A DNA stretch of 63,214 nucleotides, counting the filler. It is 4 parts of 4 records of this genome, joined end to end, with 100 filler letters (N's around TTAATTAATTAA, not from the genome) between each part and the next. Parts side by side here need not be neighbours in the genome. Positions count along the whole stretch, not along the records: positions 1 to 31,449 come from SRR20825019_1427; 3 more parts are not named here. The stretch is one strand, 5' to 3'. Under the pieces are notes generated by a model that saw nothing but the letters and a program-made list of their open reading frames with translations, was not told the origin of the DNA and searched no databases. The translations under genes and the position numbers were made by a program. Positions 4,201 through 37,041 of this stretch are shown here, one piece after another (the first letter of the stretch is position 1; the number at the start of each line of letters is the position of its first letter).

Positions 4201-4362
4201 CCAGCTTCTACACTTACTGACGTATTACTCATAAGTGCACCGTGCCGGCGTAGTCTCATCCCAGACTAACTTTCGGGCCCAAGCGCTGGGCCCCACTCTA
4301 TACTCAGGAGTCGCAAGGACTGACAAGGACACGCATGAGGAGGTAGCGCGGAGATTGGAGAA

Positions 4363-7300: not shown

Positions 7301-10300
7301 CCTATATGGTCAAGGTGTTCTCGAAGTCGTTTTGGGCGAAACGAGAGCCAGCTTTTGTGCAAATATCCCGCGCTTTCGTGCACAGGAGCCTCATGGACAA
7401 ACCTCCGGGTCTGATCCAATCAGTTGGGATGGATGGGTCTCCATACAACGACTTCATTTCCTCTGTCACCGCGGATGGCTTCAAGGGTATATGCCACGGG
7501 GGTGGGGATGTGTCAGGGGATGAGCATCGTCTCGACAACAGGGTGGGCGGAGGAGGGAAGCAGTGCCTCTGTGATGGTTTGGTGATGTATCTGCACGTCC
7601 TTCACTGCGACGCCGCCACTCGAGCACGCTGGCGTACCGCGGAGAATGAATGGAAATCTTTGCGCAGCGTGATAAAGAAGAGGATGGGGCCCCGCCACGC
7701 GGACTTTTGCAATGCCACGATGTCACTGGCGTCTGTTCACGACATGCAAGGGCGATGTGCGGAAGCGGCGAGGTTGATGGAGGAGGTGCGTTCCGTGAGA
7801 AAGGAGGAGCTTGGTCGCAGCAGCGGCGAGTATATCGCGGTCCTCAAAAGCCTTTCAGACGTGTTAACTGATATGGGGGAGCCTAGCAAGGCACTCAGTC
7901 TTTTGGAGGAAGCCCGGTCGATACAAGAAGGAATGATCGGAAAGGTCCACCCCGACTATGCCGACACCCTCGAATTGGTCGCAAAGGTATATGACGCTGC
8001 TGACCAACCGGAAGAGTCCCTTGGCGTCCTGGAGGAGGTGAAACGCATTAGGTCCATCGTTCTGGGACGTATGCACCCGCTCTATCTATCATCCCTGAGT
8101 GCCTTGGCCTTGGCTCATGACTTGGCTGGCCACACGGCGAGAGCGGCCGAGGAATATGAACTTGTGAGCAAGCTCACCCTGGAAGGGCTTGGCAACCAGC
8201 ACCCCGACTATTTGGAGTCTCTGATGTCATCTGGTGCAGTTTTGACTTCAACGGGTCAGTTTTCAGATGCGTTGAAGAAGTACCATGAGGTCCACCAGGT
8301 TCGTGCCAAGACTCTGGGAAAGGCACACGAAAAGACGCTGTCGGCCGGCCATAATATCGGGGTGACCCTCCGTAGCTTGGGGAGATACAATGACGCACTG
8401 GAGTGCTTAGAGGACGTCATGGTGTCACGGAGGGAGGCGTTGGGATCTCGGCATCCGGACTACCTTACGACTGTCCATCACGTGGGCGTGGTGTTGAGGA
8501 GTCTGGGGAAGTTCACGCAGGCAATGGATATGTTTGAGGAGGCGCGCATCGGGAGGGCCCAAGCGCTTGGTGACCGGAGTAGGGACTACATCTCCACCGT
8601 GAGCGCAATCGCAGGCATTCACAAGGCCCGCGGCGACTATGCAGATGCGTTGGAAATGTACACCAGGGTGCGGGATGCGCGGATGGAGCTTCAAGGGCCG
8701 AGGCATCCGGATTATCTAACCGCTTTGGCTAACATCGCCATGGTTCTAAAAGGGACAGGCCAATACGCGGAAGCTCTGGAGATGCTCAAGGAGTGTCGGG
8801 CGGGGCAAGAGGTGATTTTGGGACCCGACCACCCGACTGTGTTGACCTGCGTACACAATATTGCTTCCGTCCAGCTTGCCCTAGGCAAAACTGCAGACGC
8901 GTTGGATGGATTCAAGACGGCTGCGGACCGTAGGAAGGTGGCGCTTGGCCCCCGACACCCAGATTACCTGACCTCTCTCAACAACGTGGCGGTGATCCTA
9001 CGGTCGATGGGGCAGTTGTCGGGTGCGTTGAAGGTATTTCGGAAGGTGGAGGCCGGCACGAAGTCGTCGCTTGGGGATAGTCACCCGAGCCATCTTACAG
9101 CGGTGCACAATGTGGGCTCGGTTCTTTTTGCGCAAGGTGCATTTGGTGAGGCTTTGCGGGCATTTGACTACGCGAAGGCAGGCCGCTTGAAGTCTCTCGG
9201 GCGGGCCCACCCAGATTACTTGGCCACCCTGACCAACATGGCCATTGTGTATAGTGCAATGAATGACTATCCCAGGGCAATGGAGCTTTATGACGAAGTG
9301 AGGCTTCAACAGGAGCAATCTCTCGGACAGTCGCACCCTGATTATCTTACCACTCTGCATAACATTGCCGGGCTTGAGGGACAGCATGGCGACGCGGAAC
9401 AGGCACTGCAAAATCTGAAGAAGGTTCAGAGCCGCCGCCGTGCTTCTCTGGGCACGATGCACCCAGATACTCTCAGTACGGGTGATCTGATGGCGACAGT
9501 CATGCGCCGTCTGGGATTGGAAGATGAGGCGACATCGGTGCTCGATGACGTTCTGCGGGGGCGAGAAGCCACCCTTGGTGTGAATCATCCCGACTATCTC
9601 GCCACCCATCGCGCCCTTAATGGAATGCCTCCTTCGTCTGCTATGAATGGAGGCAAAGCAGAACCTTCTTCTCGTTCAGAAGAGCGGTCCGTGCTACAGC
9701 CATCGTTGTCAGCACGCCGCCTCTCATCCAAGAGAAGTGATAGTGATTCTGGGGCAGGGGTCGACGTTGAGGTTGCGTCTATCCGAACATCGCAAGGCAT
9801 CGGAGATGGCCAGTCCGAAGATACTCATGCGGGAACCGACGGGCAAGAGCCCATTGATGCATCTAACGGGGGAGACGACCGAGTCGCCCCTTTCGAATGC
9901 AACCACACCTACACTCTGGAGCAGGCGAGAACACACGCGCTCTCTCTTTTTGGCCGGATGGCGCTCGGCCTTGGCCCAGTGAAGTGCCCGAGGCGTGACT
10001 GTGGCGCAAAGATCCGTGTCCAATGGATGGTGAAGGAGGGTTACGCCGCCCGTCTTAAGGACATGATGTTTGCCCTGCAAGCATTCTATGCTCCACCTCT
10101 TGACAGTGATGGCGGAAGTGAAGGTGACGATGTGAGTGTTGAACTGCGGCCGGGCGATCGTTCTGGCCGTGACTCCGGCGTGGAAGTGGGTATCCGAGAC
10201 GACGAGAAAAGCGTGGACACCAGTATTGCAAGTCGCTCCTCCAACTCCGTAGATGTCACCGTGCCTTCCCGGTCCGCCGCCAAGGCCCCAAAGGCGGCCG

Positions 10301-10335
10301 CACGGCAGAGCAAGAAGAAGGGGAAGAAGAAATAA
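4363..10335 (+). CDS. Intronless STAND-class (NB-ARC-like) P-loop NTPase with kinesin-light-chain/NPHP3-type TPR array and a degenerate RING-like C-terminal motif, 1990 aa
   Basis: Single ORF. Walker A VTGGAGAGKT (~5986-6015), followed by RYKYVFWV, Walker-B-like WLVVVE and GxP-like KSPLQAA. The 42-aa LGxxHPDY repeats span 7684-9600. C-terminal CNHTY...KCPRRDC and a Lys-rich tail. Confidence 0.85.
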   Translation: MAEAGVPVFPRVKDIVRAADSTPRKGKARAWEGWTQWPPYTTVAPARAGQTESLRDVMAPACDSNAGEGPSVPRSARGEQKMAFCDAFVVLDDCLRPRLAGLLRGVVPLWSAAQQWFRDVTSANEARDKADQPQRSPRSGAKAGQLLLPPCPGCGATAAASGAPRACPAGHEWWHRAVARRQRLRAAMECGVVRRAAAAKIPDSLDLATVLYLLALVHPVDDDEEKFLLQLTAAGLRLREVGDAYSPGALFQRNRVSPGLNHWALVPFETLMHVVNAVKEAPSSVLFARNTSEKSKRTSREAGWLVEVINCCVGAIDKGTTAPCIDGNLRTLSGAGKNALWLMLYREWDRLQEFGTLAVAWAWVLVTGQLQYNNELLSRLVGRPLGRSGWPEFVGDYDIGTAVAMLQAVHRVAADVAGTRAQLAPEVAALGEMKTIVSSLRDIRLALAGLGRRTTDPAVRNALPSEESMNSLYQAGMDAMSSQGLDMKALRGLATRTLVADYGGNGISTLAPPLARADMQTVPASDRLIQSFQGSRDGVVVVTGGAGAGKTALLARYCAENGDRYKYVFWVGLAEASGDVYILMHQRIYGEPDSARRLRDKESTDDRTARNQKAKAEVIHHLTSYSSGSRGWLVVVECGGVDGSSVDEARTLTDELTKIGQEEAHKKGESRSQSRGSAESTARLKRHTAILVHGGDPTVSTLFAGYPVIEMEELSRADRNALLARTGGAVLKESLAKKSPLQAAVLGSCGDAIVNSKDLVFGQEDSVPDLLVAAKMRYLPRAAWPRGEWSLPANLQCIDNYLGQMGDTSGDDGRVMIRLLGCCGGYISLLHASYSHILWGSDTKRAIEAARAIAQWNIGSLVLQNGKIVAITCHAFVVNALRAKGGVLHQSDENWKRRTAQYAGSYLGAVVRSHLGQSVFVAEALSSRDVAILTRVCVGACAALGLVSAGYIEPPLLLLYFMTCAQLRPGMPSPASKAIAYMVKVFSKSFWAKREPAFVQISRAFVHRSLMDKPPGLIQSVGMDGSPYNDFISSVTADGFKGICHGGGDVSGDEHRLDNRVGGGGKQCLCDGLVMYLHVLHCDAATRARWRTAENEWKSLRSVIKKRMGPRHADFCNATMSLASVHDMQGRCAEAARLMEEVRSVRKEELGRSSGEYIAVLKSLSDVLTDMGEPSKALSLLEEARSIQEGMIGKVHPDYADTLELVAKVYDAADQPEESLGVLEEVKRIRSIVLGRMHPLYLSSLSALALAHDLAGHTARAAEEYELVSKLTLEGLGNQHPDYLESLMSSGAVLTSTGQFSDALKKYHEVHQVRAKTLGKAHEKTLSAGHNIGVTLRSLGRYNDALECLEDVMVSRREALGSRHPDYLTTVHHVGVVLRSLGKFTQAMDMFEEARIGRAQALGDRSRDYISTVSAIAGIHKARGDYADALEMYTRVRDARMELQGPRHPDYLTALANIAMVLKGTGQYAEALEMLKECRAGQEVILGPDHPTVLTCVHNIASVQLALGKTADALDGFKTAADRRKVALGPRHPDYLTSLNNVAVILRSMGQLSGALKVFRKVEAGTKSSLGDSHPSHLTAVHNVGSVLFAQGAFGEALRAFDYAKAGRLKSLGRAHPDYLATLTNMAIVYSAMNDYPRAMELYDEVRLQQEQSLGQSHPDYLTTLHNIAGLEGQHGDAEQALQNLKKVQSRRRASLGTMHPDTLSTGDLMATVMRRLGLEDEATSVLDDVLRGREATLGVNHPDYLATHRALNGMPPSSAMNGGKAEPSSRSEERSVLQPSLSARRLSSKRSDSDSGAGVDVEVASIRTSQGIGDGQSEDTHAGTDGQEPIDASNGGDDRVAPFECNHTYTLEQARTHALSLFGRMALGLGPVKCPRRDCGAKIRVQWMVKEGYAARLKDMMFALQAFYAPPLDSDGGSEGDDVSVELRPGDRSGRDSGVEVGIRDDEKSVDTSIASRSSNSVDVTVPSRSAAKAPKAAARQSKKKGKKK
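7684..9600 (+). repeat. TPR array: 16 copies of the LGxxHPDY motif at an exact 126-nt (42-aa) period
   Basis: The first copy (MGPRHADF) is at 7684 and the last (LGVNHPDY) at 9574. The difference is 1890 = 15 x 126. Confidence 0.9.
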
Positions 10336-11738: not shown

Positions 11739-13086
11739 CTAGTATGCTTCGTCGTCGTCGTCATCTGGAGAGAGTACACTGGACTGGCCTGCTGCAAGTA
11801 GTGGATTTTCAAATACCATCCCGCCTCCAACAACTAGAACACTGGGTTAACCCACGAATGAGGACTCCAATACCACGGATTTGAACACACCTTCGTCCAC
11901 TTGCCCATGGAGGGACATGTCTGGAGGGGCTTCCAAGACTGACGTGGCGGCAAACATGGGAGACATTGCGGGCGACTGGATATTTTCAGATTGGATAACT
12001 TTCGACACGGTCTTCTTAAGCTTGCTGCAGGACAACAAAAGTCAGGACACCCCTGTGAATGGCAGGAACACCAATCACATACCGAATTCGCTTGAATATG
12101 TCCATTAGATCATGCTTCATTCCCTCCACCAAAGGGACCTGTTCCTTGAACCTCTTGTTCATGGCCTCAAACTTTTCCGCGGCTGCCGTTGTGGTCTCGT
12201 CGCACATCTTATTGGAAGCCGCGAGCGTTTTCAATCTGGCAACATATACTAAGCCAAAAGGATCAACTTAGCAACTGAACATCACTTACATATCCCCCTG
12301 GACAGAGATTACCCGGTCCGTCTCCGACTTGTCAACGAAGCCCTCAACCATTTCCGCGAGGCTACGCTTCTTCTGAGAGCTAGTTAATGCGTCCGATCCC
12401 ACAATGGACGCTGCCACGTCCCTGGCTATACTAGCAATGGTTTCATGGGGGGGAGGGTCTTTGTCGTTGTGGATCGCCGTCTCGGGCACCTCCAAGGGCT
12501 GACTATCCTCGGGTGGAGGTAGCTCTCGTTGCCATGGTTGTTCATCGCCATACACATCTTCCCACACTCTCTCACAAATATCAGCTAGCTCCCCGCAACA
12601 TACCCCGGCCACCGCCCGCTTTGGATTGGATACTACGCCGTTAAAGAACTCCCTTCCAACTGCAACCACAAAGGCTCTTCGTCCTATTGAGACTCCCTCT
12701 TCGGTTTCATCGTCGATGCACAGGGCGCCATTTACGCTGGTGCTGTTAAGCTCACGGAGGCGGAAAATAAGGTGCCGGTCAAACGATTTGAGCGTGTCCA
12801 TATTTGCCTGGGCCAGGGAGTATGCAAGGCGGGGGAGAACAAGCGTGCCCAAGACCTTCTCCAATAGTTCTGCAGCCGACAGAGTCTTCTCGCTAGCACC
12901 ATCTCCTGGCCCCAGAACAAGAAGCGCCCTGGCCTCATGTACTGCCTCGGCGCGGACGCCACTTGGTAGCTGAGCGCCGCGGTCCCCGTCTCCCGAGTTG
13001 TCCTCCACGTCCGACTGGAACTCCCACGCATCCTCAATTAAGCCCCAAAAAGCCTTGGCTGCAAGGTCTCCACCTTCCTTTGCCAT
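11739..13086 (-). CDS. KXD1: DUF4240-like domain fused to a KxDL (KXD1/BORCS4-like) domain; spliced; last exon uncertain
   Basis: Exon 1 (13086-12290) has FWGLIEDAW...SFDRHLIFRLREL...RAFVVAVGREFFNGVVSNP, a DUF4240-like pattern. Introns are 12289-12236 and 12082-12025. Exons 2-3 read ILKTLAASNKM...MKHDLMDIFKRIRKLK, the KxDL signature. It ends at stop 11847 unspliced or at 11739 with one more intron. Confidence 0.72.
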
Positions 13087-13269
13087 AGCTGGTATTTTGT
13101 TCACACAACTTCTGTGGGGGCTTCTTGCGTTTATAACTGGCGCCGCCGACCCTGCTTGACTGCTGGCTGTGAAGGGCTGAGTAGTTTCAGGCCCGCTCGC
13201 ACAGAAGAGCATCAACTAAGGCACTTCCGGCCCAGTCTTCCGGCTGCCTGTGCGCCTCACTGCCAACTA

Positions 13270-13725
13270 ACCCGGGCGCTGGCTGGCCCCGGGGCCGCGG
13301 GCCGGCCCGGCCGGCCGGCGTGCACGGCGCCGGGCCGCCGGGGGCCGCGCCGCCGGCGCAGGCCCTGTCCGGCGAGGCCGGCCTGAGGCGCCCAGTCCGG
13401 TTGCCCGTCCAGGCCGCCCGGCGGCGCGCGGGCCGGCGCCGTCGCCCATATCGCAGGCGCCGGCGGTGTTTGAAAGCAGGGCGGCGTTGGGATCCCATTC
13501 GGGGGTCAGTTGCCCGATGGGACGCCGTCCCGGCGCTGATGCATGCCCGGCGCCGGCGCCGGCACGAGGCTTGTGGCGCATTGATGGCACGGCGGCTAGC
13601 CCGGGTCGCCGGCCGGCGAGGGTCCGGCCGGTCGGGCGGCGGCCCCGGCGGGGCCCGAGGGCGCGAGCGGCAGCGGGGCGCCCTGATGCAGTCAGGCGGC
13701 CCCGGAATGATGGGCGGGCCCGCCT
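13270..13725. promoter_or_regulatory. GC-rich island, candidate bidirectional promoter (KxDL fusion / NLR-like gene)
   Basis: Lies between divergent start codons at 13086 (-) and 13819 (+). Confidence 0.6.
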
Positions 13726-13818
13726 TCTCGGACAAGCCCAGTCGGTCCTCAAGATCTCACCCCGTGAGTACAAATGTATACGTCCTCCACATCATCCTCA
13801 GCAGGTCAGTGCGCGACG

Positions 13819-16800
13819 ATGAGTAGGAGACCCTCGTCGGCGCGAGCAGCCGCAGAGGTGGCCCGCTCTCTAGCGAAGGAGCGCGTTCGCCTGAACGCAC
13901 AGAACAGAAAGGCAGAGTGCTGCGTCGCACAGAAAGTTGCAGTTCAGATTCCAACCTCCATTGAGGAAGTCAAGCCTGACGGGCTCGTTGGCATCGCAAC
14001 TCCGGCTCCGTCCCGCCCATCAAGCCCGGCTGGCAGCGCGGCGGCGCTTCGAATTAAAAGAGCCGTAAAGAAGATTGAGTTCGTGGAGCGATTTGTCCAG
14101 GGAAGTGCGGGTTGTACATGCAAGCCAGCCAAGTCGACAGTGGAGGCGACTGAATCCGTTCGTGCCGAGGTGGAGTCTCTCAAGGCAAAAATGACCGGCA
14201 GCTCCGAGGGCACCATCGTTCCTGATAATATTGCAGTCACGTCGGGAGCTGTGCTGGACCCTTCCTCGGTTGACGACCTCAGGGCCATGCTCCAGGACGG
14301 TGGCGTGTCAGTGGCCAAGTGGGGAGTGGGATACTCCAACTCCGTGGCGGACCTGTTCCGTTACTTGAGGAGGGACAAGGTGAGTGGACGCAATCCTCCC
14401 CGTTATTCCCACTAGGGACGGCCTTTCTAACGTCACGTCGCAGGCAATGCTAGTGAAGGGCGAGGACGGAACTCTGTATTTGGTCCTGAAACTGTGTCGT
14501 CTCCAGATGTCCAAGCAGACCGGCCCCGCGGGTGAGGGTGTGCGGAGGATACTCATCGAAACCCATCAGGCTCTTCGGAATGGTAGTATCCGACAGAAAT
14601 ACCAGGCTCCCATCACCGCCATGCTGCCGGGTGAAACATGCGTGGAGTCTGCCCGGCGCCTCCTCGCGGACGAGGTATTGACTGGCGATGAACACAGCCA
14701 TCACAAAGGAGGCAACACGCCAGTTCCTAGTGTATGTGTGTGCAAACAGAGTGGCCATGTCGTGAGCCAGCGGGTTGTACCGTCTAAGGACTACCCAGGC
14801 CTGCGCTGTGTGATTGTGGTGCACGACGTGTTTGCGGATGGTGCCAAGGTCTCGTCGACTCCATTCTTCTCAGCGTATAAGCCCCCGAAGTCTTCCACCG
14901 AGTCGGAGGAAGAGTTGGCGGCGTCGGTGCTGGTTAGGTACTATAATTGGGTGGATGAGTACGTGTGGATGAATCAGTTGGAGAAGCGCGCTTGGCTGTA
15001 CGACGAGGATGCCGGCAACAAGCCCGCGGCTGGAGACAAGGCTGAAGATGCGGGAGACGAAAAATCCGCCGTTCTCAAGGATGTTGAGATTACATGGATG
15101 AAGGATGACAGCAACTCGTCACATGAAAATGAAAACAAGGCCCTCCAGTATCTCTTTCCGAACTATCGTTCCATGCGGGTGACTCTGCTCCATGGCGGGT
15201 TTTCGGGAGCGATTGTTGTCCAGGTCTGGCCCTATTACTGCCAGGATGGCAGCCGATGCTGACCGGATTCACTTGCAGGTCCAGGGGGTGGATGAGAAGG
15301 GTGACGCTTTGACGCCCCTCGTGGTCAAGATCGACAACAACAGGGATTGTGTGATCGAAGAATTCCAAAGGTTGGTGCTGCAAAGTTTCACAATGTCAAT
15401 TACTAAAGGCTCGTCGCGGCGTACTAGATTCAAGCTTATCTCCAGTGACCTTGGAGATAACGCGCCTGCAGTCATCGCGCACACATTTGATGTCCCCGTC
15501 GCGGACTGCCCCTACGGCGCGATGGCATTTGAACTGTAAGTGAACAGATGAGTACCTTAGTGATGCGTGTGGCTGACCATATCCCAGCGCCGGCGCATGC
15601 TGGAATGACCCTGCTTTGGCCTCCCAGGTGCATGTGAACACGCTGAAGGAGCTGTACATTTTGCGTCAATTGGACGCTTCTTTGCAGGAAAAATCGCATT
15701 TGTTCGGCGACGTAGATAAGGTTATCAAGGAGGTGTTTTCGGAGCTCATGGTGATACCGTGTTTACAAAAGGCCAAGTTGATAGCCGACAATTTGTGCAA
15801 CCGTTACAAACTCGAGAAATACATCAAGAGATATATACTTGATGAAATGACGGACGCCCAGCGGAAGAAGCGGCCCATGCTTCCTGACATTAGGCAATTG
15901 CTGGAGGCATCAGGTGGCACGAATCATGATATTGTGAAGTTGTTCAAGGTTGTTGAAAGCAGCAAGAACATTTTCAAAGATTTCCCCTTCTTTGAAGGGA
16001 TTGCACACGGTGATCTCAACGCCGCTAATGTGCTTATCGATTCTGAAGAAGTGATATGGGTGATTGACTATGCCACAACCGGTCCCCATCACAACTTGGT
16101 GGACATCACAAAGATGCTGTCGTGTGTTTGGTTCGAGTACATCACAATAGACTCAGAACAGACACTGAAGGATCTCAAGCACATGGTTGATTGGATCCTT
16201 GCCATGCCATCTTTTGAGCCTTTGCCGTTAATAGAGGATATCCAGTATTTCAGTAATCCCGATAGAAATGAGCCGTCCCCCAACGTGCGGATGACATGGG
16301 GTGTTTCCCGTACGCTCTTGTCCTTTGTCCCCCTGTATCTTTCCAAAAATAGCACAGCCAACGAAATGTACCAACTCCTTATTCCAATGATGGCGTGGGG
16401 CCTCAAGGGATCTTCTTATAGTGATTTGTCGAGCGAACAGCGCGAGCTGTCTTTGCACGTTGCGACGAGGGCGGCGGCACGCCTTCTCCAGCTCTATGAT
16501 CCACAGGCGCTTGACAAGGCCGGCCTTCATGGCGCACTTCCGGTCCAGAGTTCGCACAAGTCATCTGAATTGCATGAGATGTTCGAACGAAATATTGACT
16601 TCGACGACGAGATGAACAAATACATCCAGTTTGTCCGTATGCGCCATAGCAAGATTGTCGATCCTATCTCGAATAAGGTGTTAGATATATGGAAACATTG
16701 TGTGAGCGTCAAAATTTTGACGGCGGATGAGCAAGTGAGACTGGTGGAGGATGCTCAGAATGTGGAGCACGACGACGACGATGAAGAGATGTCCGATGGT

Positions 16801-19800
16801 CGGGTGTATGATGCGGTTGAATGGCTATTACCCCACAAGTATGTCCATGAGATCCAGGAGCAATATAGTCAAGCGAGCGAGACTCGTGATCACGTTTTGA
16901 CGTCTGACTGCAAGCAAAACCATGCACTCAAGAAGAACCCTAGGGTCCACATGCACAAGGAAGAGGATTGGGTATATGGGAATCCTAATCTTCGGTGTAT
17001 GAGCTGCCGATCTGCTATTGGCCCAGAGGCCCCTACCCCTGAACTTTGCGATGTGAGTTGTTTCAATAACAGCTTGGCGAACGGCACCGACTTCAAGTGC
17101 TACCCACTCATATGCAGGCCAACCGAGGTGTCGTTTTCGAAGCCGCATCTCGGTTATCCGAAACACCGGCTTGCACGAGCAGATGCCGTCAAATGTGGCG
17201 AATCGAAACGCGCTTGGTTCCGCAAGGACAATGATTTCGTCAAGGAACCCGTGCCAGTCGATGAAGAAGAAGCCAAAGACTACATGCTGATCATTGATAC
17301 CAAGATATCCAAGACCGGAGAGGAGCAGAAGGTTGTGTTGGAGCCAAAGCCGACGGTCTTTGATGACGAAGATGTGGTTGCCGCACCAGCGGATGATGCT
17401 GTGGCGGGGCCAGAGGCTGATGCGGGCTGTAATGCCCACGCAACTTCGGAACCTCCAGCGGAAGGCGCGCCGCTTGAGGATAAGAAAGCCGAAGCGACGG
17501 AAGGCAAACGTGGCGGATCTGAGGCTGACGTAGAGGCTGAGCATGTTGAGGAGCCGCTAGGCTCGGATTCTCAAGCGAGCGACATCTATGATTCTGTGAT
17601 GGATGATTCCGACATGTTTGACACGGATGGTTACATAGACGATCAATTACGCCGCCGGATGCGTCGAAAGGCGAGGAGACATAGGTATAGCGACGAATTT
17701 AGCGATGAATACTCGGATGAAGACTACTATGATCACGATATTCCTGGTGGTGACTGCCCCGGGAAGGCCCACAAAAGTTGCGACGAAGTCATCCAGCCCT
17801 CGGATTTCTGCATCGCGTGCCTTCGGTGTAAGATGATCTTCAAAACTGGCGCGTGTTTCCTCGCGCATCATATCAATAGGAAGTGGGCGTACAGAAGCTT
17901 GATAAAGGTCCCGGAGAACAAGAGCTTTGTGGTCTTAGGGCCCGCGGCAAGTGGGAAGACGGTGCTCCTCAAACGTCTGCTCGTAGAGGGGGCATCGTCA
18001 CAATCGATGGGAGGACGTGCGGTGGTTCCCTATCTGATCATCCTTGTGGATCTGGCTCGCCTCGTCGTCAACCAAAACTTGGGTCCCACCGATGACCTCG
18101 TGGTAAGTGCTCCGACTAGATTCTGTTCATGGCCACGGCTTGTGATTCGCGTCATATCCTAGTGCAAGTCGCTGGCATAATGCCTCTAACATGTGTCTGT
18201 CTGCAGGATTGCTACATGCGAGAGAGGCACGGGGCACACACCAGGCGCTACGCATTCTTGAGGATGTGCAGGAGGAAGGGCCTCATGTTTTTCCTCTTTG
18301 ATGGACTGGATGAAACCGGAATAGCCCGCCAAACCATCGAGCGTTATCTCGACATTCTCACTCTTGAGAATTGCAGGATCCTCCTTTCCTCACGCCATAG
18401 TGGCTTCGACAAGAACAAATACCGGGGGTGGAAATTCGTCATCATTCGACCCTTGAGCCATACGATGAAGGTTGACCTATTCATGAGCCGCATCAGTTCG
18501 GAAGACGACAAGGTGGCGCGGTTTGTTTCCACTCTTGACAGCTTGGATCAAGGCCTCAAGGGACTGATTGGAACACCGCTCTTGTTTTCTCTGTTTCTCG
18601 CTCTGTATGAAAAACAGATGGAGTCGGGAGAAGGTGAATCCGGTTTCGATAGATCTTCATTGTACAGCACTGGTATCGAATTAATTGCTTTGGCCGATTT
18701 CACGTGAAAGTCTAACATTCCCGCAGGCTTAGAATTGATGCTCAAGAATCTTGACGCTAGAAAGTATGGCCGCAGAAAGGGAGAGGTGGACAAGGCGGCG
18801 CGGTCGGCGCTCTTGTCCGATGACTTCGCCGAGGTCATGGACTTCCTGACAAAGCTATCGTACGACCGTCATTGCTGCGACATCGAGTCTCGGGACATTA
18901 TGCGGCCCCACGTTATGGCTCTGGATAGTCGCACCCTCCTCGGGGAGGAGGAAAACTCTTCAGGCAAGGAAAAGAATACTGCGACGAAATCTGTTGTCCC
19001 ATTGTGGGAAAAGCTGGAGAACGGCGTTCGCAGCGGAAGGGTACCCCTCTTGCAGTGTGTCCAGGACTCTATGGATCGCAACCAAGCTATTTATCGCTTC
19101 ACCCAGTAAGTACTTTCGATCCTTTGTAGTTCCTGTAGATGGTGTGAACTGACGGAGTAGTCCAGCCTGACCTTCCAAGAGTTTTTGGCCGCCCGGGCCA
19201 TTGTGAAGCAGATGGATCTCTTTGAAGGTCTGAATGGTGTCGACTACATTGACGCCGTCCGCAAGATATTCACGAACAAACCGGATGAACCATTCAACAT
19301 GCTGTATATGCCATGGTACAAACAGATGCTCGTATTGTCTTTGACCATGATGACCGAGGTCCAATACATTAAGTTCGCGTTGGCTATCCTCTCCTTGGAT
19401 CTTGACCTCACGCTGAGAATTGTCCAGTCACTCCCCCGCCTTGGAGCGAGTGAAAAGAAGCTAGCGCCAAGGGACATTCTGGTGCACATTGGAAAGGTGT
19501 TCTGGGCTCCGCGATTCAACTTCTTGGGAGATCTTGACTTCGGTCTGTCTAATAACCTTGTGGATATTCTTGCGAACGCACACACGATCCGAGAGATGTA
19601 CATTCGCAAACCGGAGATCAGTCTCAAGGAGGTGTTTAACGTGATTTCCAAGTCAAGCGTGGAGAAGCTCAGCATTGAAGCTTCTGGAGGGGGCAGCAAA
19701 TCCGACAGTATTGACATGGCGTCTTGTAAGTCTCTCAAGTCGCTCAACATGTTTATGAGAAACCCCAGTCGCGAATACTGGATGTCCGTGATCAATCTGT

Positions 19801-22800
19801 TGGACGGGCTCTCGTCTTCATCGCACGAAGCGTCTATGGAAGAGGTGTGTATCGGGTGTGCGTTTGGTATTTCCGTTTTCTAACCGACTCCAAAGATTGA
19901 TCTTATGATCACCTTCCCGATAGGTATATGTGCGCTAGGATACCCTAAGGTGGATGGCCCGGTACAAGCCGAAGATTGCCAACGCCTTCCGAATGACTCA
20001 CTGAAGCGATTGGCCTTATCTTGCACTTACATCCCGGCAAGCATCATAATTACCTTGGTTTCGAGTTGTCGGTCGCTCAGGTCCTTGGTACTGTCATACT
20101 CATTCGAGTATTATGGGGAGGATGAGGTGTCGAGATTAATGGATGCACTGCTGAAATCTGGCGCGCCGCTGGAGGAGCTGACCCTTGCAGGTATAAATTT
20201 AGGCGATGCCGGGGCCGCGGCCATCGGCAAGTACCTCCAACAAGGGAAACATCGCCTGAAGCATTTGGACGTGGAGGCATCCGCGATCTTTGACGAGGGC
20301 CTGTGCGGACTTCTGCCGTTCGTGCGCTTCGTTTCATCAGATGGGGGAGCAACGCTTTCTCTTGGTTCCGCGAAGGATTTGGAAACTCTGCTAATTCGAG
20401 GGAATCTCCTTGGCTTGACGCATTATTTGCCAACAGCTTTCGACCTTGGATCATCTGGGAAAATAGACTTCTCGTTATCTATGAACGAGTTCATTGAATT
20501 CTACGACAAGGTTCTCAGCACCCCGTCCCCTCTTGACAACCCGGATTGCCAGGCATGTATGTCTCATTCACCGGACAGTATCGATGAAGTGAACAAAGAA
20601 ATGATTCTCTGCAACGAATACATGAGCGGGTCCTCAGTATGCGACAATGGCGTCTGCTTGGCGGCGGTATCTGGGCTCTTGTGCCGTGCGAGACTTGCAT
20701 ACAAGGAAGCGGGTGCCTCGAGGCCGGTAGACTTCGTTCAGAATTACATTGTGTGCTTGGTGCATTATCGTGACCTTCTGATCAGCAATGACTACTCAGC
20801 AATGGCAACCTATGTGGACATTGACTTGCTGATCCTTATGCACAAGTACGACCACTGCAATGAGGATGCCAAACATCGCGTCCGATGGGTTGGGGTCATC
20901 GGCAATCTCATTGAAATATTCCCGTTTGGGATGATGACTGGCGTGGAATCGGACAAAGAGGTGCGCATGTCGTATTATATGTGTTTATTCCTAGTTGCTT
21001 TGAGTATCAAGGTGGCCCAAGTGTCTGCCTCGATTTCATTCGAGGAAAGAGCCTGCAATGCCAAGATATGGGGAAACACCCTGATGCTGTGTGGGAGGAG
21101 AGTTCTTCTCTCAAGAGAAGACAAAGCTGAGATGGCCGTCCTCCCTGGGCCCATTGTCTGTGACGAGCGGGCCACTCCGTTGTTGATCAAGGCCTTCCAT
21201 GACTCGGTGGCTCTGTACGCGCACGTTTGGGAACCCCATAAGGGGACGGGGACCCCGGAGGAGGCGGCGGCCTATGAGGCCTTCATTTACGCTGTGTATG
21301 CAGAGGTTTGGTTTGTGTCGGCTGTTCGGGGCTTTGTGCGAGTTGTGAAGAGCGCCTTGGCATGCAGCGACAAGAAGGTCATTCACAAATTGGTCAAGGA
21401 TCGCCTGTATCAGACTTGTCTCGATATGGAAGATGACAATGTTATCGTGAAGGAATCGTATCAGTGGATGGGTAAACTGGATGTGCAGTACTCCGATATT
21501 TCCAAGCACATCAATATGTCCGATAAGCAACTCGAGGAGATCATCGAACCCGTTCTCAGCCGCTCAGAACAAACACTTACGTCTCTCAAGATTGATAATG
21601 AAGACCTCGTGCAGCTGTGGAGATCCGAGGGCCGCGAATTGACGTTCCATTTGGCCCGAGGTATCTTGCTACAGTGCAGGCACCGAACCAAGTTCAAACC
21701 CGCAACCTTGGTAATGGCCGAGCTTCCCATCGTCATGGCCGATATGATATTTGAGAAGGGCAATCGCCCTAAGCTCGCCGGCGCCCCGCCTGGGGTCTGC
21801 GAAGAGATCATTGGAAACCTCAACATTCAGATCAAAAGCATTGATGAGTTTGGGTATTCTCAGGCGGAGGTCCTCCGGCGCGCCCGCGAGTCTCAGGCTA
21901 TGGTAAGAAGGATTAGTATGTTGTTGGACCTGCTCTGATGTCGGGATACTGAATAGCTGAAGGAGAAGGCTGTTGTGACCCTTACTCAGAACATGAATAT
22001 CAGTGATATGCCGCAAGAAGTGGGTCCGATGTGCAGTCTAATGATGGGTGGGTTGGTTAGATGCTTCGGTTGCTGGTAAATTGACTCTTCACAACAGCCA
22101 TGGGCGGGATGGAAACATCTCGCCACAATAGGTTTGATGAGGATAAGGTCTCATCCAAGGAAGACTTGAAGAAATTGATGCGACCGATCCGCGGCACGTA
22201 CGATATGTTCACGCTGTTCCTGCGGACCGATGCTTTGACATACATGGGTGTGCTCTTCTTCATGGAATTGTCACAGAGGGAAAGAGAAAATTCCTTTTGT
22301 ACGTGCCTGATTCATTCGTAGTGCTGGTACTTATTGCGCTTTGCAGATGATATGTTCTTTTTGGAGTCTCGAAGGCTAAAGCCTGTTACATCCGATGGAA
22401 AGTTGTACAACTGGGAGAAAGAGATGAAATCGTATATCTATGGGACTAGCGAGGTCTTCAAGTTCGACTACAGAACATGCAAGAGGTGCATCACCAAGTC
22501 CGGGAAGAAGGTTCTGACCCGCGTCAAGGACGGAGACACGGAGCTGCTCCCCTACAAGCGTGGAGAATGGTTCTCCGACCCTGGCTCATCCCGGATTCCA
22601 ATGATATTTGCGGTAAGTCGACGGCGCCCTTGATCGCGGATTGCACCTTAGCCCGTGGCGCTGCAGCCCCCAGCGGAGTACAAAAGGTCGATGGAAGAGA
22701 AAGGCTTCGCTTACGAAATGACGAGTACAAACGTAAAACACCTTGTGGATGAAGATTTCGACTGCCCCGAACTACACGAGGAGGTGTCGCCTAGGTCTGA

Positions 22801-22852
22801 TCTTTATGAATCCGAAAATGAATCCTTTGAGGACTCGGATTTAGACTTCTAA
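13819..22852 (+). CDS. NLR-like STAND protein: NUDIX-like + TCAD9/APH-type kinase + Cys-rich + NACHT + RI-like LRR + unknown C-terminal region; 13 exons, ~2,780 aa
   Basis: Exons 13819-14379, 14444-15223, 15279-15370, 15428-15535, 15588-18102, 18207-18672, 18727-19105, 19166-19844, 19896-21902, 21957-22047, 22098-22298, 22347-22612 and 22652(or 22667)-22852 all keep frame across GT..AG introns. Motifs: GETCVESARRLLADEV, LHGGFSGA..V, VVKID, HGDLNAANVLI, IDYA, GPAASGKT, FLFDGLDE, LLSSR, TPLL, YRFTHLTFQEFLAA (restored across an intron) and LEELTLAGINLGDAGAAAIG. Confidence 0.82.
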
Positions 22853-22944
22853 TGATCATCCGAAACCTATATGTATCACGGCCGGAATAAATCTAGAACT
22901 GATATCGTCATGGTGATTAGGGGGCTGCATTTGCAGGTATAGAT

Positions 22945-23835
22945 TCAATGAGCACGCTTGGCTGCTGCAATGGTTGCGAGGTGCGCAACTGTCCATGCAG
23001 ACACGCGCAGTGCGTCGATGCCAAGCCCCTTTTTGGCAGATACAAGGTGCACGGTGCCCTGCGCACAGGGCAGGCAACCGATCTCCCTGTTCAAGACGTC
23101 CACAAGATGGCTAACTTGTGCCTGGTTCACCTTGTCTGCCTTCGTAAGTACGATGGTGAAAGGCACGCGATGCTTGTTCAGCTTTTCCATCATGAACAAA
23201 TCCGTGTCGAACGGGTCGTGCCGCGAGTCCACCAGCACGTAGCTCATACACAGGGGCGCCCTTCCCTCCAAGTAGTCCCTCGCCTCCGCGTTCCACGACA
23301 CCCGACTAGCGCCTCCGTAGCCAGGCATATCCACTAGCGTCATCTTCCGATTAAGCCCATAGTAATACATCATCTTGGTGCAACCGGCCTTCTTGGACAC
23401 ACGTGCCACACGGGCTCTGCGGAGGCCCAGCAGGGCATTGACCAGGGAGCTCTTCCCCACATTCGAACGGCCTACGAAAGCAACTTCCGGCTCGATGCCC
23501 GGTGCCTGGCTTCCTGGTTTATATGAGTAAACCTTGTTCCCATCGAACACCTGCCTGTGCACGACCGGCCCGTCAGCCCCGAACACACACCGCCACCCAG
23601 TTCGTGTATACCTTGCAGTCTTCAAGATTTGTTGCCCCGGTGCGATGACCTCCACGCCAGCGTGAAGAGGAACGACATAGCCGTTGTACCAGTGAGACGA
23701 TGGGGCCACTTGTGGAGGAGAAGGGGAGCCAGTGGGCGCACTGCTGAGACACCGCCGCTGTGCCCGCGCAAGTTGCCTTGCGTGGTTCCATGTTGGCCGT
23801 AAGAGGCGATGTGTTTGCAAGCCACGACCCAGCAT
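22945..23835 (-). CDS. EngB/YihA/YsxC-family ribosome biogenesis GTPase with mitochondrial-type presequence (GTPBP8-like)
   Basis: PEVAFVGRSNVGKSSLVNAL (G1), DMPGYG (G3), LTKADK (G4), VSAKKGLG (G5). The N-terminus is Arg/Ser-rich and lacks acidic residues. Confidence 0.9.
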   Translation of the reverse strand: MLGRGLQTHRLLRPTWNHARQLARAQRRCLSSAPTGSPSPPQVAPSSHWYNGYVVPLHAGVEVIAPGQQILKTARYTRTGWRCVFGADGPVVHRQVFDGNKVYSYKPGSQAPGIEPEVAFVGRSNVGKSSLVNALLGLRRARVARVSKKAGCTKMMYYYGLNRKMTLVDMPGYGGASRVSWNAEARDYLEGRAPLCMSYVLVDSRHDPFDTDLFMMEKLNKHRVPFTIVLTKADKVNQAQVSHLVDVLNREIGCLPCAQGTVHLVSAKKGLGIDALRVSAWTVAHLATIAAAKRAH

Positions 23836-24536: not shown

Positions 24537-27500
24537 ATGTTCGTCTCATTGAGGCGTGCACAACAACTGACGTCAGGCCAGTGGGCCCGGGGCGTGCCGA
24601 GGCTGCTTGGCGCCACAGAGTATCGTGGCAATGCTGCAGCAGCCTGGCGTCGCTCAACAACCACCATAGCTCAGCAAAAGTTAGCCGCGCCGATGGCTGC
24701 ATCGTATGACCCGGTAGGAAATAGAACAAAACTAGTCATTATCACCACCCGCCCGGCCGGCGCTGACGTCGTTTTGATTAATTACTAGGCCAAAGTAGAG
24801 GAGGGGTGGTACGAGTGGTGGGAAAGCAATGGCTTCTTCACACAGCGTGCCAAGGACGGGCGCCTGAGCGGCACCAAACCATTTTCCATGGTTCTGCCCC
24901 CGCCAAACGTTACGGGTGAGTGTTTGATTTCTACATTTGTGGAATTATAACAAAGCAGCGTTCCAGGCGCCCTTCATCTTGGCCATGCTCTCACAGTGAC
25001 CCTGGAGGACGCAATGGCTCGGTGGCAGCGCATGCAAGGGCGCGAGGTGGTGTGGGTGCCCGGTTTAGACCACGCTGGAATTGCTACGCAGGTTGTCGTA
25101 GAGAAGCGACTAATGAGGGAAAAAAATGTACTGTATAGGGTTGGGTTTTTGCTTCGGTGTTTGGATGCCAAATGCTTTTTGTAGTCAGATTTTTATATGT
25201 GTGTCCGTGTCGTGATGCCTCTGTCCATCTTATGGCGGATCTGTGCTTGACGGGTATGGTGCTGACCCGGTGCGTTCCAGTTGTCGCGCCATGATGTCGG
25301 AAGAGAAGGATTCCTTGGGCATGTGTGGGAATGGTACAACAGCTATGGAGACAGGATAACCAAGCAGCTGGTAATGCCAATTACGTCATGCATCACCCTT
25401 TCCTGTCCTGGAATCTGACAGTGACCAATGCAGTGTCGACTTGGAGGCTCGATGGACTGGTCTCGGCGTGTGTTCACAATGGATGATGCCAGATCAGAGG
25501 CCGTGATGGAGGCCTTCATACGGCTGCATGAGGCAGGCCTGGTGTACAGGGCCAGGCGCATGGTGAACTGGTGCTGCTTCCTTCGAACTGCCATTAGTGA
25601 TATTGAAGTGGACTACCTGAGTGTGGATGGCCCCACCATGGTAAAACTCCCTGGACGTCAAAGTCCTGTGGAGTTTGGTGTCTTGCACAAGATAGCTTAC
25701 CCCATCATGGCCGAAGACGAGGAAGGTGCAGAGCTCATTGTTGCCACAACGAGGCCGGAGACTATCTTTGGAGACACGGCCATCGCTGTACACCCAGAAG
25801 ACAAAAGGTTCTCTCGTTTTATTGGCATGAATGTGACCAATCCGATGACGGGAGAGCCCATGCCGATTGTCGGGGACGCTGAGTTGGTTGACATGGAATT
25901 CGGAACCGGGGCAGTGAAGGTGACACCCGCCCACGACCCAAATGATTATCAATGCGGCAAGCGGCACAACTTGCCCGCAGTGGAAGTGATTGACGGGTAT
26001 GGACGGCTCACGGCAAATGCAGGGCCGGATTTTGATGGAATGGACCGCTTCGACTCTAGATCGAAAATTGTGCAAGTCTTGGAATCGTCTGGGCTGTACC
26101 GCGGCCGTGAGAAGCACCAGACGCGCATCACCAGATGCTCACGAACAGGCGACGTGCTTGAGCCCCTGCTGTTGCCGCAGTGGTTTGTGGACTGCTCCGA
26201 AATGGCGGCCGAGTCTCTCCGCCTGGTGAAGTCCAACGAGACTAAGCTCATTCCAGATACATACAATGCCACATGGAATGCCTGGCTAGGTAACATCCAG
26301 GACTGGTGTGTGAGCCGCCAGCTGTGGTGGGGGCATCGCATACCGGCATTCAAGGCGACGGGTCCAAGTATCCCGGTTCAAGAGGATGGCCCTTGGATTG
26401 TGGCCAGGTCACAAGCTGAAGCGCGGGCTATGGCGCAGCAGAAGTATGGTGGCGATGTGACGGTTGTCCAGGATGAAGACGTGCTGGATACCTGGTTTTC
26501 ATCAGCATTGTTTCCGCTCTCCGTGCATGGGTGGCCACACAAAATGCCCTCGCCCGATCACTACCCACTGGACGTGATGGAGACGGGGGCCGATATTCTC
26601 TTCTTCTGGGTTGCCAGGATGACAATGATGTGCACATTTCTCACAAACGGGCGCGTTCCTTTTCCTGACGTATATCTACACGCCATGGTCCGCGATGCCA
26701 CTGGCCGCAAGATGTCAAAGTCGTTGGGGAATGCCATTGACCCCGTTGAGATCATCGAAGGGGCCTCTCTGGAGAGTATGGAGCAGGCCATTCGAACCGG
26801 CAACATTGATGCCTCGGAGAAGGAAAAGGCCCTTGTTGCGCTTAGAAAAGATTTCCCAGAAGGCATCCAGGAGTGTGGCGCCGATGCACTACGCTTCACG
26901 TTGGCGCATTACACTGTCCAAGGGCGCAACATCAACCTTGATGTGAACCGTGTCGCAACGTCGCGGTATCTGTGCAACAAGTTGTGGAATGCTTCCAAGT
27001 TCATCATGAGCAAAGATATGCATTCTTATGACTATGTGCCGGGCAGACTGTCTCTTGCAGATAGATGGATGTTATCTAGGGTCGCATCCACTGTTGGTGC
27101 TGTCGACTCGGCGCTGGGTTCCTATGATTTCTCACTTGCATGCAGTTCAATTCGCCAGTTGCTTGTGAACGATCTTTGCGACAAGTACATTGAATTCACA
27201 AAACCGGTTTTCGGACATGACCCGTCTCTGTCCCCGGTTGATGCGGCCTCAGCTGCCTTGGTATTGCGCGTGACCCTAGATAACGTGCTCAGACTCATGC
27301 ATCCGTTTATGCCATACGTGACAGAGGAGTTGTGGCAGCGACTGAAGGAGTGCTCAAAGGTTCCGGAAGATTTCTCAGACCTGGCATCCTCGATCAGTAC
27401 CCCTAGTATCTCGATAACATCTTATCCCCATTTGGGAACCCACGCTCGCTGGATCGATGAGAAGGCGGAAAGAGACATTGAATTGGTAGACGAAGCAGTT

Positions 27501-27959
27501 CACAAACTCCGGGCATGTCTTCAACAACATAAGGCCTCTGGTCATAAGGTGAAGTCTGCTGTGGGAATGATATACTGCCCTAGTGAGGAAACGGCTGATA
27601 TCCTCCAATCTGAAATGCGCCTTCTTGGCATTGCCAGATACTCGGATATTGTGGTTTCTTCGTCAGAAGATGTCCTTGAAAAGGGTAGGGCGACATCTGG
27701 AGAAGGGGTCGTTGTTCAGAGTATACATGGGTCATTTGGTGAGGGAGTGGTAGTATTTGAGTTAGAGGACAGTTCCAATAATGGAAAGAAAAAGGTTTCA
27801 AGCGGTAAGGTGGTGAAAATGAGGAAGGAACTGGAGAGGCTTGAGTCAAAAAGAGCGGTACCGGCCTATTCCGAGCGTGTGCCGGCACACATTCAAGAGA
27901 AGGATCTCAACAAGATCAATGACCTCAAAAAGAGGCTCCAAGCTGTTGAGGATTCGTGA
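24537..27959 (+). CDS. valS: Valyl-tRNA synthetase, probably mitochondrial; 5 exons
   Basis: Introns 24714-24788, 24916-24966, 25128-25280 and 25371-25433 restore [15 protein letters not shown] (HIGH motif). Also [35 protein letters not shown] and KMSKSLGN. The N-terminus is a basic presequence. Confidence 0.95.
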
Positions 27960-31449: not shown

Positions 31450-31549
31450 NNNNNNNNNNNNNNNNNNNNNNNNNNNNNNNNNNNNNNNNNNNNTTAATTA
31501 ATTAANNNNNNNNNNNNNNNNNNNNNNNNNNNNNNNNNNNNNNNNNNNN
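31450..31549. other. Artificial contig linker N44-TTAATTAATTAA-N44
   Basis: Exactly 100 bp, with a palindromic six-frame stop cassette at 31494-31505. Eukaryotic DNA on the left, bacterial DNA on the right. Confidence 0.98.
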
Positions 31550-32709: not shown

Positions 32710-32712
32710 CGC

Positions 32713-33684: not shown

Positions 33685-33717
33685 TGTCTTTCCTTCTCTG
33701 ATTGTTCAGTTTTTAGG

Positions 33718-36900: not shown

Positions 36901-36913
36901 GCTCTGGACCGAG

Positions 36914-37023: not shown

Positions 37024-37041
37024 TGCACAGGCTCAGATACC

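Follow-up and report, generated by a model that had tools for sequence, protein, structure and literature searches.

A 13-exon gene of a microbial eukaryote is predicted to encode an NLR-type protein with a TCAD9/APH-type kinase head

In a stretch of DNA of 63,214 nucleotides (nt; the window, along whose whole length positions are counted), the plus strand between positions 13819 and 22852 carries a gene predicted to encode a 2,776-amino-acid (aa) protein of the STAND/NLR type (signal transduction ATPases with numerous domains; nucleotide-binding leucine-rich repeat receptors). The locus is an NLR with an unusual enzymatic head, from an undescribed family whose members are already in the databases. 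As judged from sequence, all three parts of an NLR, namely an N-terminal module, a NACHT NTPase and C-terminal repeats, follow one another in order in one predicted polypeptide, and the protein belongs to an uncharacterised TCAD9-NACHT family in which the C-terminal repeats vary between leucine-rich repeats (LRR), ankyrin, HEAT and RCC1. The reading that we favour, at somewhat better than even confidence, is that of one 13-exon gene for a TCAD9-NACHT protein acting as a switch in biological conflict, with the kinase as its head. Animals provide the textbook cases of NACHT-LRR receptors as immune sensors, and the reach and wiring of the design in unicellular eukaryotes are poorly charted; the gene is a cleanly supported NACHT-LRR of a microbial eukaryote whose signalling end would consist of a small-molecule-type kinase and a degenerate Nudix-like domain.

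Between 13768 and 22852 the plus strand is a chain of long stop-to-stop open reading frames (ORFs) in changing frames. The spliced model was built by a shortest-path search over GT..AG pairs and then corrected by reading of the junctions, by spliced contigs from X1 (one public sequencing run of unrecorded kind, in which 0.15 of the gene's words are present) and by alignment to distant homologues. A model with the fewest introns was dropped for its long, implausible introns, and the cost-model introns 15179-15209, 18107-18162 and 22613-22651 were replaced in keeping with the sequence, the homologues and the contigs. The resulting 12 introns (Table 1) are all GT..AG and 48-104 nt long, with donors that are mainly GTAAGT or GTGAGT and, in most, a CTAAC/CTGAC branch-point-like motif 10-25 nt before the YAG; retention of 11 of the 12 would bring a stop or a frameshift. 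The start is ambiguous, as a second in-frame ATG stands at 13774, 45 nt (15 codons) upstream of 13819. An earlier note made from the letters of this stretch had proposed one frame of ~2,780 aa spliced through 12 junctions, with an intact TCAD9/APH-like kinase, a NACHT module whose motif becomes whole only across intron 19106-19165, LRRs of the ribonuclease inhibitor (RI) type after it, and a long C-terminus of unknown kind; each of these proposals held up, and the coordinates given for HGDLN, Walker A, Walker B and intron 19106-19165 were exact.

The model is collinear with three of the closest relatives (P0001-P0003, introduced below) over aa 116-1747, and seven junctions (introns starting at 14380, 15224, 15371, 15536, 18103, 18673 and 19106) fall within gap-free homologue alignments. 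Because intron 15371-15427 is in frame and free of stops, it is invisible from the ORFs alone; its excision closes a 19-aa gap and raises the match of the stretch to P0003 from 22.7 to 50.2 bits. The winged-helix motif that spans intron 19106-19165 aligns, once joined, gap-free with RFVHLSFQEYLAG of the Hondaea homologue. Three further junctions (21903-21956, 22048-22097 and 22613-22666) are skipped at GT..AG in X1 contigs, and the remaining two (19845-19895 and 22299-22346) are placed from splice signals and coding potential. Held-out exons scored between +0.14 and +0.29 bits per codon when read in the modelled frame and below zero in the other two, and the pooled introns had a negative coding score in all three frames.

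The X1 contigs cover the gene patchily and within 19550-22950 only, so that the lack of 5' cover is uninformative and continuity of the 5' two-thirds is taken from collinearity with homologues. Seven positions over 13700-22950, all in the covered 3' part (21440-22904), distinguish them from the window, which suggests that they come from a related strain, and they are most simply read as RNA. A rival view would be that the locus is not one functional gene, being instead a set of adjacent genes or a decaying pseudogene in which short in-frame 'introns' hide stops. That view could appeal to the absence of RNA cover before 19550 and to introns 19845-19895 and 22299-22346, both in frame, with one stop each and no outside support: the former, across which the continuity from NACHT to LRR runs, has neither RNA nor homologue support, and the latter is unspliced in the sole X1 contig that covers it (22097-22376), so that some transcripts would end the protein at 22321. 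We nevertheless model 22299-22346 as an intron because, of the three frames, it is only in the modelled one that the two exons after the TAG at 22319-22321 look like coding sequence (+0.18 and +0.28 bits per codon), and because a spliced plus-strand intron lies ~290 nt downstream of that TAG, which would be odd for a 3' untranslated region. With seven junctions gap-free against homologues, three in spliced contigs, all catalytic motifs intact, every held-out exon coding in its modelled frame only, and NACHT followed by LRR being the canonical order, seen also in the relatives P0150 and P0019, we give a split or decaying gene very little credence.

The kinase is the best-defined part of the head. 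Exon 15589-18102 by itself matches Pfam TCAD9 (PF19974) at 43.8 bits against a cut-off of 40, over profile positions 297-360 of 429. Pfam APH (PF01636) reaches 19.7 bits, below its cut-off of 23.2, a likeness at superfamily level only, and the best matches among PDB sequences over the catalytic loop were Rio2 (E 0.035) and spectinomycin phosphotransferase (E 0.49). In the alignment of the family, the window protein agrees with the consensus at H654 (conserved in 145/145), D656 (142/145), N661 (146/147), D674 (144/147) and K464 (69/71). As every catalytic residue of the APH/choline-kinase/Rio type is present, in near-invariant columns, the kinase is very probably active. A recent preprint lists TCAD9 among the protein-kinase-like families of the KINtaro set.

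Between kinase and NACHT the window protein carries an insert of ~360 aa that is absent from its closest homologues: P0001 passes from the end of its kinase match at 1059 to the start of its NACHT match at 1104, and the same points in the window protein are aa 927 and 1305 (numbering of the first gene model). The insert has a coding potential of +0.26 bits per codon. Beyond it, all NACHT motifs are present, including the Walker A and Walker B consensus and YRFTHLTFQEFLAA, and aa 1294-1747 align with P0003 at 122.7 bits and with P0004 at 148.1 bits without a gap at the junctions (E 1e-38 to 1e-46); both of these homologues pass Pfam NACHT, at 33.8 and 35.9 bits against a cut-off of 26.7.

The repeats that follow NACHT show LRR cores of the pattern LxxLxLxxN/CxL at a period of ~28 aa, the best repeat being LEELTLAGINLGDAGAAAIG at 20169-20228. 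A phmmer search of exon 19896-21902 against PDB sequences found 17 at E<=10, among them the designed LRR proteins 4r5d (E 6.9e-6) and 4r6g (2.2e-4), ribonuclease inhibitor 1dfj in several registers (E 1.2e-5) and NLRP14 (E 0.045), with NLRX1 and a NOD2-like chain among the weak matches. The sole LRR-type match in Pfam was LRR_At5g56370 (12.3 bits, E 0.14). For the ~740-aa tail behind the repeats, we found no Pfam family, no match at E<=10 to any of the 154 retrieved proteins, no relative in a word-indexed search of proteins of 285-909 aa, and in the ESM Atlas a best score of 0.77, below a useful level.

The domain in front of the kinase (N-terminal domain, N-dom) was harder to place. Its alignments to P0003, P0001 and P0002 score 14-28 bits, and a profile built from it also matches P0154 (two clear and two weak copies), P0006, P0033, P0130, P0022 and P0045. 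A word-indexed homologue search with residues 40-300 of P0003 gave four matches, and the same kind of search with the N-dom alignment found no relative among proteins of 456-2000 aa. The profile had 0 matches among PDB sequences, and the best ESM Atlas score was 0.75, under any useful level. The window sequence holds a degenerate Nudix box, LPGETCVESARRLLADEV, at 14624-14677. The canonical box is GX5EX7REUXEEXGU with a catalytic glutamate triad; that of the window reads E-x7-R-L-L-A-D-E-V-L, in which the upstream glycine, the glutamate after the arginine and the final glycine are missing and the first glutamate of the EE pair is an aspartate. A regular expression for the canonical box found no match in it, and the consensus of the N-dom family retains only E..R..E (E-x7-R...E), two of the three box glutamates not being conserved. 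A candidate in-frame intron of 75 nt at 14675-14749, whose removal would improve the look of the box, was kept as coding because the homologues have residues there; in coding potential it is ambiguous (-0.12 bits per codon, GC content at third codon positions 0.44).

We compared the N-dom profile by hhalign with a reference profile made from 14 Nudix domains of E. coli K-12, and obtained a score of 30.0 (P 4.3e-4, probability 34%) on the Nudix-box columns, against 14.4 for the reversed reference and at most 15.8 for 60 column-shuffled references. Two independent subgroups, P0130 with P0022 and two of the P0154 copies, each gave P 2e-4 on the same columns, and the window N-dom alone gave P 0.004. 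The N-dom is thus a probable Nudix-derived domain, predicted to hydrolyse no longer, a call that we make with moderate and not firm confidence. Of the earlier note's term 'NUDIX-like', the part that stood is the profile match above its nulls on the box columns, and the part that did not is any support from Pfam or PDB matches or from an intact box, two of the three glutamates having been lost. The domain accompanies TCAD9 with or without NACHT (P0130, P0045, P0033, P0022). In Effrenium voratum P0154/P0166 (CAJ1391016.1, 2,569 aa), N-dom copies at aa ~4-633 precede Neur_chan_LBD and Neur_chan_memb, and tandem copies on a ligand-gated channel hint at a ligand-binding role. The fusion of the domain to a Cys-loop ligand-gated channel is unusual, and the gene model could be a fusion artefact.

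Relatives were gathered by phmmer with the 838-aa exon 15589-18102 against 1.84 billion representative proteins. This returned 158 proteins at E<=1e-3, 21 at <=1e-10 and 3 at <=1e-30, with no self hit; the nearest are 28-31% identical over the kinase, and there is no close orthologue among the representatives. In the 14 top matches, which were scanned with Pfam, TCAD9 is above cut-off in 14/14 and NACHT in 11/14 (below it in 2/14, absent from 1/14), and the C-terminal part is ankyrin in 8/14, HEAT in 2, RCC1 in 1 and thioredoxin/WWE in 1. Among 153 retrieved proteins that match the model, 149 do so over the kinase region, 47 over the NACHT region and 44 over both. Named members come from Hondaea fermentalgiana, Durusdinium trenchii, Prorocentrum/Polarella, Effrenium voratum and Cymbomonas tetramitiformis, by name labyrinthulids, dinoflagellates and a prasinophyte alga; most of the others are metagenome or assembly proteins, and no characterised member was among the relatives retrieved.

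The earlier note had implied that the architecture is without precedent, which the relatives contradict: TCAD9 is joined to NACHT in the 44 proteins just given, TCAD9-NACHT-LRR_6 occurs in Cymbomonas (P0019, and P0150 with a further TIR_2), and N-dom, TCAD9 and NACHT occur together in Hondaea P0003, in Durusdinium P0002 and in P0001. As the TCAD9-NACHT pairing is frequent and the LRR_6 and N-dom combinations are present in relatives, the architecture is real but not unique. The locus stands apart by its divergence and by uniting, as predicted, N-dom, TCAD9, insert, NACHT, a short LRR and an orphan tail in one protein. Three proteins of dinoflagellate type have TCAD9, ankyrin and DUF6829 in that order, with no Pfam NACHT at E<=1e-4. 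The order TCAD9-ankyrin-DUF6829 recurs in the dinoflagellate-type proteins P0022, P0084, P0131 and P0036 (3,372-4,544 aa; DUF6829 at 264-376 bits), and P0022, which has an N-dom too, shows a weak Cas3_HD match inside DUF6829. Near the C-termini of P0001 and P0002 (~3195-3490) there is a second P-loop, with NPHP3_N at 24.6 and 31.7 bits and AAA_16 in P0002, which would make two STAND-type NTPases per chain.

The relatives closest in architecture are the Cymbomonas tetramitiformis proteins KAK3238678.1 (P0150, 2,761 aa, UniRef 'Protein nlrc3') and KAK3249355.1 (P0019, 2,279 aa), which have the same order of TCAD9, NACHT and RI-type LRR, are similar in size to the window protein and match both its kinase and NACHT regions. 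Both have a long, canonical LRR array (LRR_6 at 220 and 273 bits), in contrast to the short, degenerate one of the window protein; P0150 ends in TIR_2, the window tail has no counterpart in either, and the N-dom profile search saw no N-dom match in them. The best relatives overall are Hondaea GBG29183.1 (P0003, 3,351 aa), Durusdinium CAK9092772.1 (P0002, 3,765 aa) and P0001 (3,992 aa), collinear with the window protein through N-dom, kinase N-lobe, C-lobe, NACHT and winged helix, though lacking its ~360-aa insert; after NACHT, P0001 and P0002 have HEAT repeats and the second, NPHP3_N-type P-loop where the window protein has LRR. They bear automatically assigned names ('APH domain-containing', 'Ternary complex associated domain-containing').

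Among described systems, animal NLRs of the NOD/NLRC type share NACHT, a winged-helix motif of the FxHxxFQEFLAA type and then RI-type LRRs; the window protein differs in having an enzyme pair at its N-terminus in place of a death fold (CARD/PYD) and a long tail after the LRR, and no orthology is implied. In ROCO/LRRK kinases, large proteins that unite LRR, nucleotide switch and kinase in one chain, the switch is a Roc GTPase with COR and not NACHT, the kinase is of the TKL type and the domain order is another, so that the likeness is one of working principle only. Fungal NLRs, in the available text of Dyrka et al. (2014; PMC4986451), can have enzymes at the N-terminus (PKinase PF00069, PNP_UDP, patatin, RelA_SpoT) and have interchangeable C-terminal repeats (ankyrin, WD40 or TPR, not LRR); their kinase is a eukaryotic protein kinase (PF00069), whereas that of the window is of the APH/TCAD9 type, and 'Nudix' has 0 occurrences in that text. 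The name TCAD9 comes from the bacterial vWA-MoxR-VMAP ternary conflict systems (Kaur et al. 2020, PMC7159879; figure legend in PMC10910872), whose effectors, in the available text of PMC7159879, include rare active APH-superfamily kinases and sporadic NACHT NTPases. 'TCAD' has 0 occurrences in the main text of PMC7159879, and we infer that TCAD9 is the APH-like kinase of these systems. The window kinase matches the Pfam family defined from them, here fused to NACHT-LRR in an intron-bearing eukaryotic gene, and differs from them in that no vWA, MoxR or VMAP gene is linked to it (none was found by a Pfam scan of the neighbouring ORFs of the contig). In the literature covered, with most subscription journals and supplements outside the scope, we found no description of fusions of a TCAD9/APH-type kinase to NACHT in eukaryotes and no paper that pairs 'ternary complex associated domain' with 'NACHT'.

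NLR/STAND proteins are held inactive by their repeats, oligomerise in an ATP-dependent manner once a ligand releases them, and activate the N-terminal module by proximity. On this pattern, the LRR and tail of the window protein would keep NACHT closed until a ligand or disturbance frees it; ATP bound at GPAASGKT/DGLDE would then drive oligomerisation and gather the N-terminal modules, and clustering would turn the kinase on by proximity. The kinase may phosphorylate a small molecule or nucleotide-derived substrate, possibly a protein. Because two of the three box glutamates are lost, the Nudix-like domain is more likely a module that binds or presents a nucleotide-like ligand than a hydrolase. 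The most likely setting, going by the architecture, would be conflict, whether antiviral or antiparasitic defence or regulated cell death. We favour conflict over housekeeping because repeats are swapped, one member carries a TIR, there are no close orthologues, and a STAND-TPR-like gene lies 3.5 kb upstream. Swapping of repeat type is also seen in bacterial NLR-like conflict proteins. The same pattern is described for fungal NLR-like conflict proteins in the available text of Dyrka et al. (2014; PMC4986451).

The housekeeping alternative would make the protein an NTP-switched signalling scaffold similar to ROCO/LRRK, serving the cytoskeleton, trafficking or stress signalling and not immunity. 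An intact kinase, strongly conserved throughout a broad family, would suit a conserved enzymatic job, the members are spread over distant protist lineages, no defence-system model matches, and the gene sits among ordinary genes (leucyl-tRNA synthetase, EngB-like GTPase). Identity that reaches 28-31% at best with no close orthologue is, however, unlike a conserved housekeeping gene, free swapping of the C-terminal repeats and a TIR in one member are hallmarks of conflict proteins, and the giant STAND-TPR-like gene upstream would be a second of its kind. We therefore regard a scaffold as unlikely.

The polarity of the protein could also be the reverse of that proposed, with the Nudix-like domain and kinase as a sensor or regulator, either through binding of a nucleotide-like signal or as bait for a pathogen factor, and the ~740-aa tail as effector. 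The degenerate catalytic box of the N-dom, its fusion elsewhere to a ligand-gated channel, which suggests ligand binding, the C-terminal position of the recognisable effector of P0150 (TIR_2) and the lineage-specific nature of the tail would all fit. A pure bait would be free to lose the catalytic residues of the kinase, all of which are kept, and the tail has no recognisable enzymatic motif; characterised NACHT-LRR proteins, moreover, sense by their C-terminal repeats and signal by their N-terminus. Reversed polarity is in our view decidedly improbable.

A bolder form of the conflict reading, which we consider quite unlikely, would see in the Nudix-like domain and TCAD9 a mobile two-domain cassette of protists, a new NLR effector that binds and phosphorylates a nucleotide-derived molecule. 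On this reading the pair occurs with NACHT-LRR, NACHT-ankyrin, NACHT-HEAT and ankyrin plus the HD-like DUF6829, and alone, and the Nudix-like domain alone on a ligand-gated channel. If true, a small-molecule signal would be made or destroyed upon NACHT oligomerisation, which would parallel in eukaryotes the nucleotide-signal logic of TIR, cGAS/CBASS and Thoeris, with a kinase in place of the cyclase or NADase.

Beyond the gaps in transcript cover, several observations count against the favoured reading of a conflict switch with a kinase head. Its immune side is drawn from architecture, and PADLOC defence models gave noise-level matches only (mad8 at 16.5 bits on the P-loop; PD-T4-6 at 15.3 bits on a homologue). 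Scanned separately, the exons of the window reach 12.1 bits (profile 4-39) and 13.3 bits (74-162) with Pfam NACHT (PF05729), under the cut-off of 26.7, and the LRR region, short and degenerate, has no Pfam LRR_6 (PF13516) match at E<=10 in exon 19896-21902. Pfam NUDIX (PF00293) does not match the window exons at E<=10 or five N-dom-bearing relatives at E<=1, the hhalign probabilities reach 34-45%, and the P0001-P0003 subgroup taken alone gives P 0.097. AlphaFold2 (AF2) models were of little help: that of the N-dom from a four-sequence alignment has a mean predicted local distance difference test (pLDDT) score of 36, with no usable fold, and a single-sequence model of exon 19896-21902 shows mostly helices at an unusable pLDDT of 40. 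The tail is probably mostly helical on that model. Finally, the C-terminal TIR of P0150 means that the N-terminal kinase need not be the only or main effector of the family.

If the kinase pair is an effector activated by oligomerisation, it would bring a new output chemistry to NLR biology and a direct link from the bacterial ternary conflict domain TCAD9 to eukaryotic NLRs. The value of the single locus is more modest, that of a well-annotated divergent member with <=31% identity to anything in the 1.84 billion representatives and with an orphan tail.

Table 1. Features of the NLR-like gene and its neighbours, in window positions; a slash within a motif marks a splice junction.
Feature	Position	Strand	Remarks
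NLR-like gene, coding region	13819-22852	+	13 exons, 12 introns, 2,776 aa; ATG 13819, TAA 22850-22852
N-dom	14221-15007	+	aa ~135-375; helical lead-in and Nudix-like core, split by intron 14380-14443
TCAD9/APH-type kinase	15125-16767	+	aa ~415-907; split by introns 15224-15278, 15371-15427, 15536-15587
Kinase Gly loop LHGGFSGA	15188-15211	+	
Kinase Lys in LVVKID	15318-15335	+	
Kinase catalytic loop HGDLN	16006-16020	+	within HGDLNAAN
Kinase NVLID	16027-16041	+	
Kinase metal-binding VIDY	16060-16071	+	
Kinase-NACHT insert	16834-17916	+	~360 aa; Cys-rich stretches, long acidic low-complexity run
NACHT NTPase and helical/winged-helix region	17926-19505	+	aa 1294-1747; introns 18103-18206, 18673-18726, 19106-19165
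Walker A GPAASGKT	17938-17961	+	
Walker B FFLFDGLDE	18288-18314	+	
NACHT LLSSRHSG	18381-18404	+	SSR sensor
NACHT GTPLLFSL	18570-18593	+	
Winged-helix motif YRFTH/LTFQEFLAA	19092-19193	+	spans intron 19106-19165
RI-type LRRs	19572-20420	+	aa ~1770-2035; about 7-9 degenerate repeats, intron 19845-19895 inside
Orphan C-terminal tail	20421-22849	+	~740 aa; introns 21903-21956, 22048-22097, 22299-22346, 22613-22666
Intron 1	14380-14443	+	64 nt, GTGAGT..CAG, CTAAC branch point; junction inside P0003 alignment
Intron 2	15224-15278	+	55 nt, GTCTGG..CAG, CTGAC branch point; joins LHGGFSGAIVVQ to VQGVDEKG, gap-free vs P0003
Intron 3	15371-15427	+	57 nt, in frame, stop-free, GTTGGT..TAG; its 19 aa absent from all three closest homologues
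Intron 4	15536-15587	+	52 nt, GTAAGT..CAG; FELAG/ACW aligned to FELVGAVW
Intron 5	18103-18206	+	104 nt, GTAAGT..CAG, CTAAC branch point; DDLV/DCYM aligned to DDLLDAYF
Intron 6	18673-18726	+	54 nt, GTATCG..CAG, CTAAC branch point; gap-free vs P0003, P0004
Intron 7	19106-19165	+	60 nt, GTAAGT..CAG; removal restores winged-helix motif
Intron 8	19845-19895	+	51 nt, in frame, holds TAA, GTGTGT..AAG, CTAAC branch point; splice signals and frame only
Intron 9	21903-21956	+	54 nt; skipped in X1 contig
Intron 10	22048-22097	+	50 nt; skipped in X1 contig
Intron 11	22299-22346	+	48 nt, in frame, TAG at 22319-22321, GTACGT..CAG; signals and frame
Intron 12	22613-22666	+	54 nt, GTAAGT..CAG; skipped in X1 contig
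STAND-TPR-like giant ORF	4339-10335	+	single ORF, 1,998 aa, 3.5 kb upstream of NLR-like gene
DUF4240-like ORF	12286-13215	-	24.1 bits, under cut-off 27
EngB/YihA-like GTPase	22945-23835	-	MMR_HSR1 63.6 bits; convergent with NLR-like gene, stop codons 92 nt apart
Leucyl-tRNA-synthetase exon	25425-27959	+	tRNA-synt_1 294 bits

Three blocks of N (31450-31549, 45929-46028 and 57633-57732), each consisting of two runs of 44 N with 12 nt between them, show that the window is a string of four contigs. The first contig (1-31449), intron-bearing, is the sole eukaryotic one. Contig 2 (31550-45928, GC ~0.6) has bacterial-type genes, among them two DctM TRAP permeases, an AidB-like acyl-CoA dehydrogenase and SulP, and contigs 3 and 4 (46029-63214, GC ~0.35) are bacterial as well, with cyanophycin synthetase, an S51 peptidase, asparaginase_2, DNA polymerase I and a LytTR response regulator. 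The bacterial contigs are thus of two different compositions, and the assembly or bin is a mix of organisms; as the NLR-like gene lies well inside the eukaryotic contig, this mixing leaves the finding unaffected.

The 1,998-aa ORF upstream has a P-loop at aa ~541-589 with sub-threshold Pfam matches (AAA_16 18.6, nSTAND_NTPase5 17.8, NACHT 13.6 and NB-ARC 12.0 bits), followed by TPR_10/TPR_12 arrays at 277 and 272 bits, and is probably a second giant STAND-TPR protein adjoining the NLR-like gene. On the other side, one X1 contig of 1,381 nt runs from 22374 across the spliced 3' end of the plus-strand gene and on beyond 22950, which suggests that the 3' ends of the NLR-like and GTPase transcripts probably overlap. 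Six antisense ORFs of 138-242 aa lie opposite the NLR-like gene, in which no Pfam family was found at E<=0.01. Directly upstream of the start codon, 13000-13800 is very GC-rich (0.68) and yields long spurious ORFs on both strands; the sole tandem repeat found, a GC-only 20-mer, stands at 13293-13352, upstream of the NLR-like gene.

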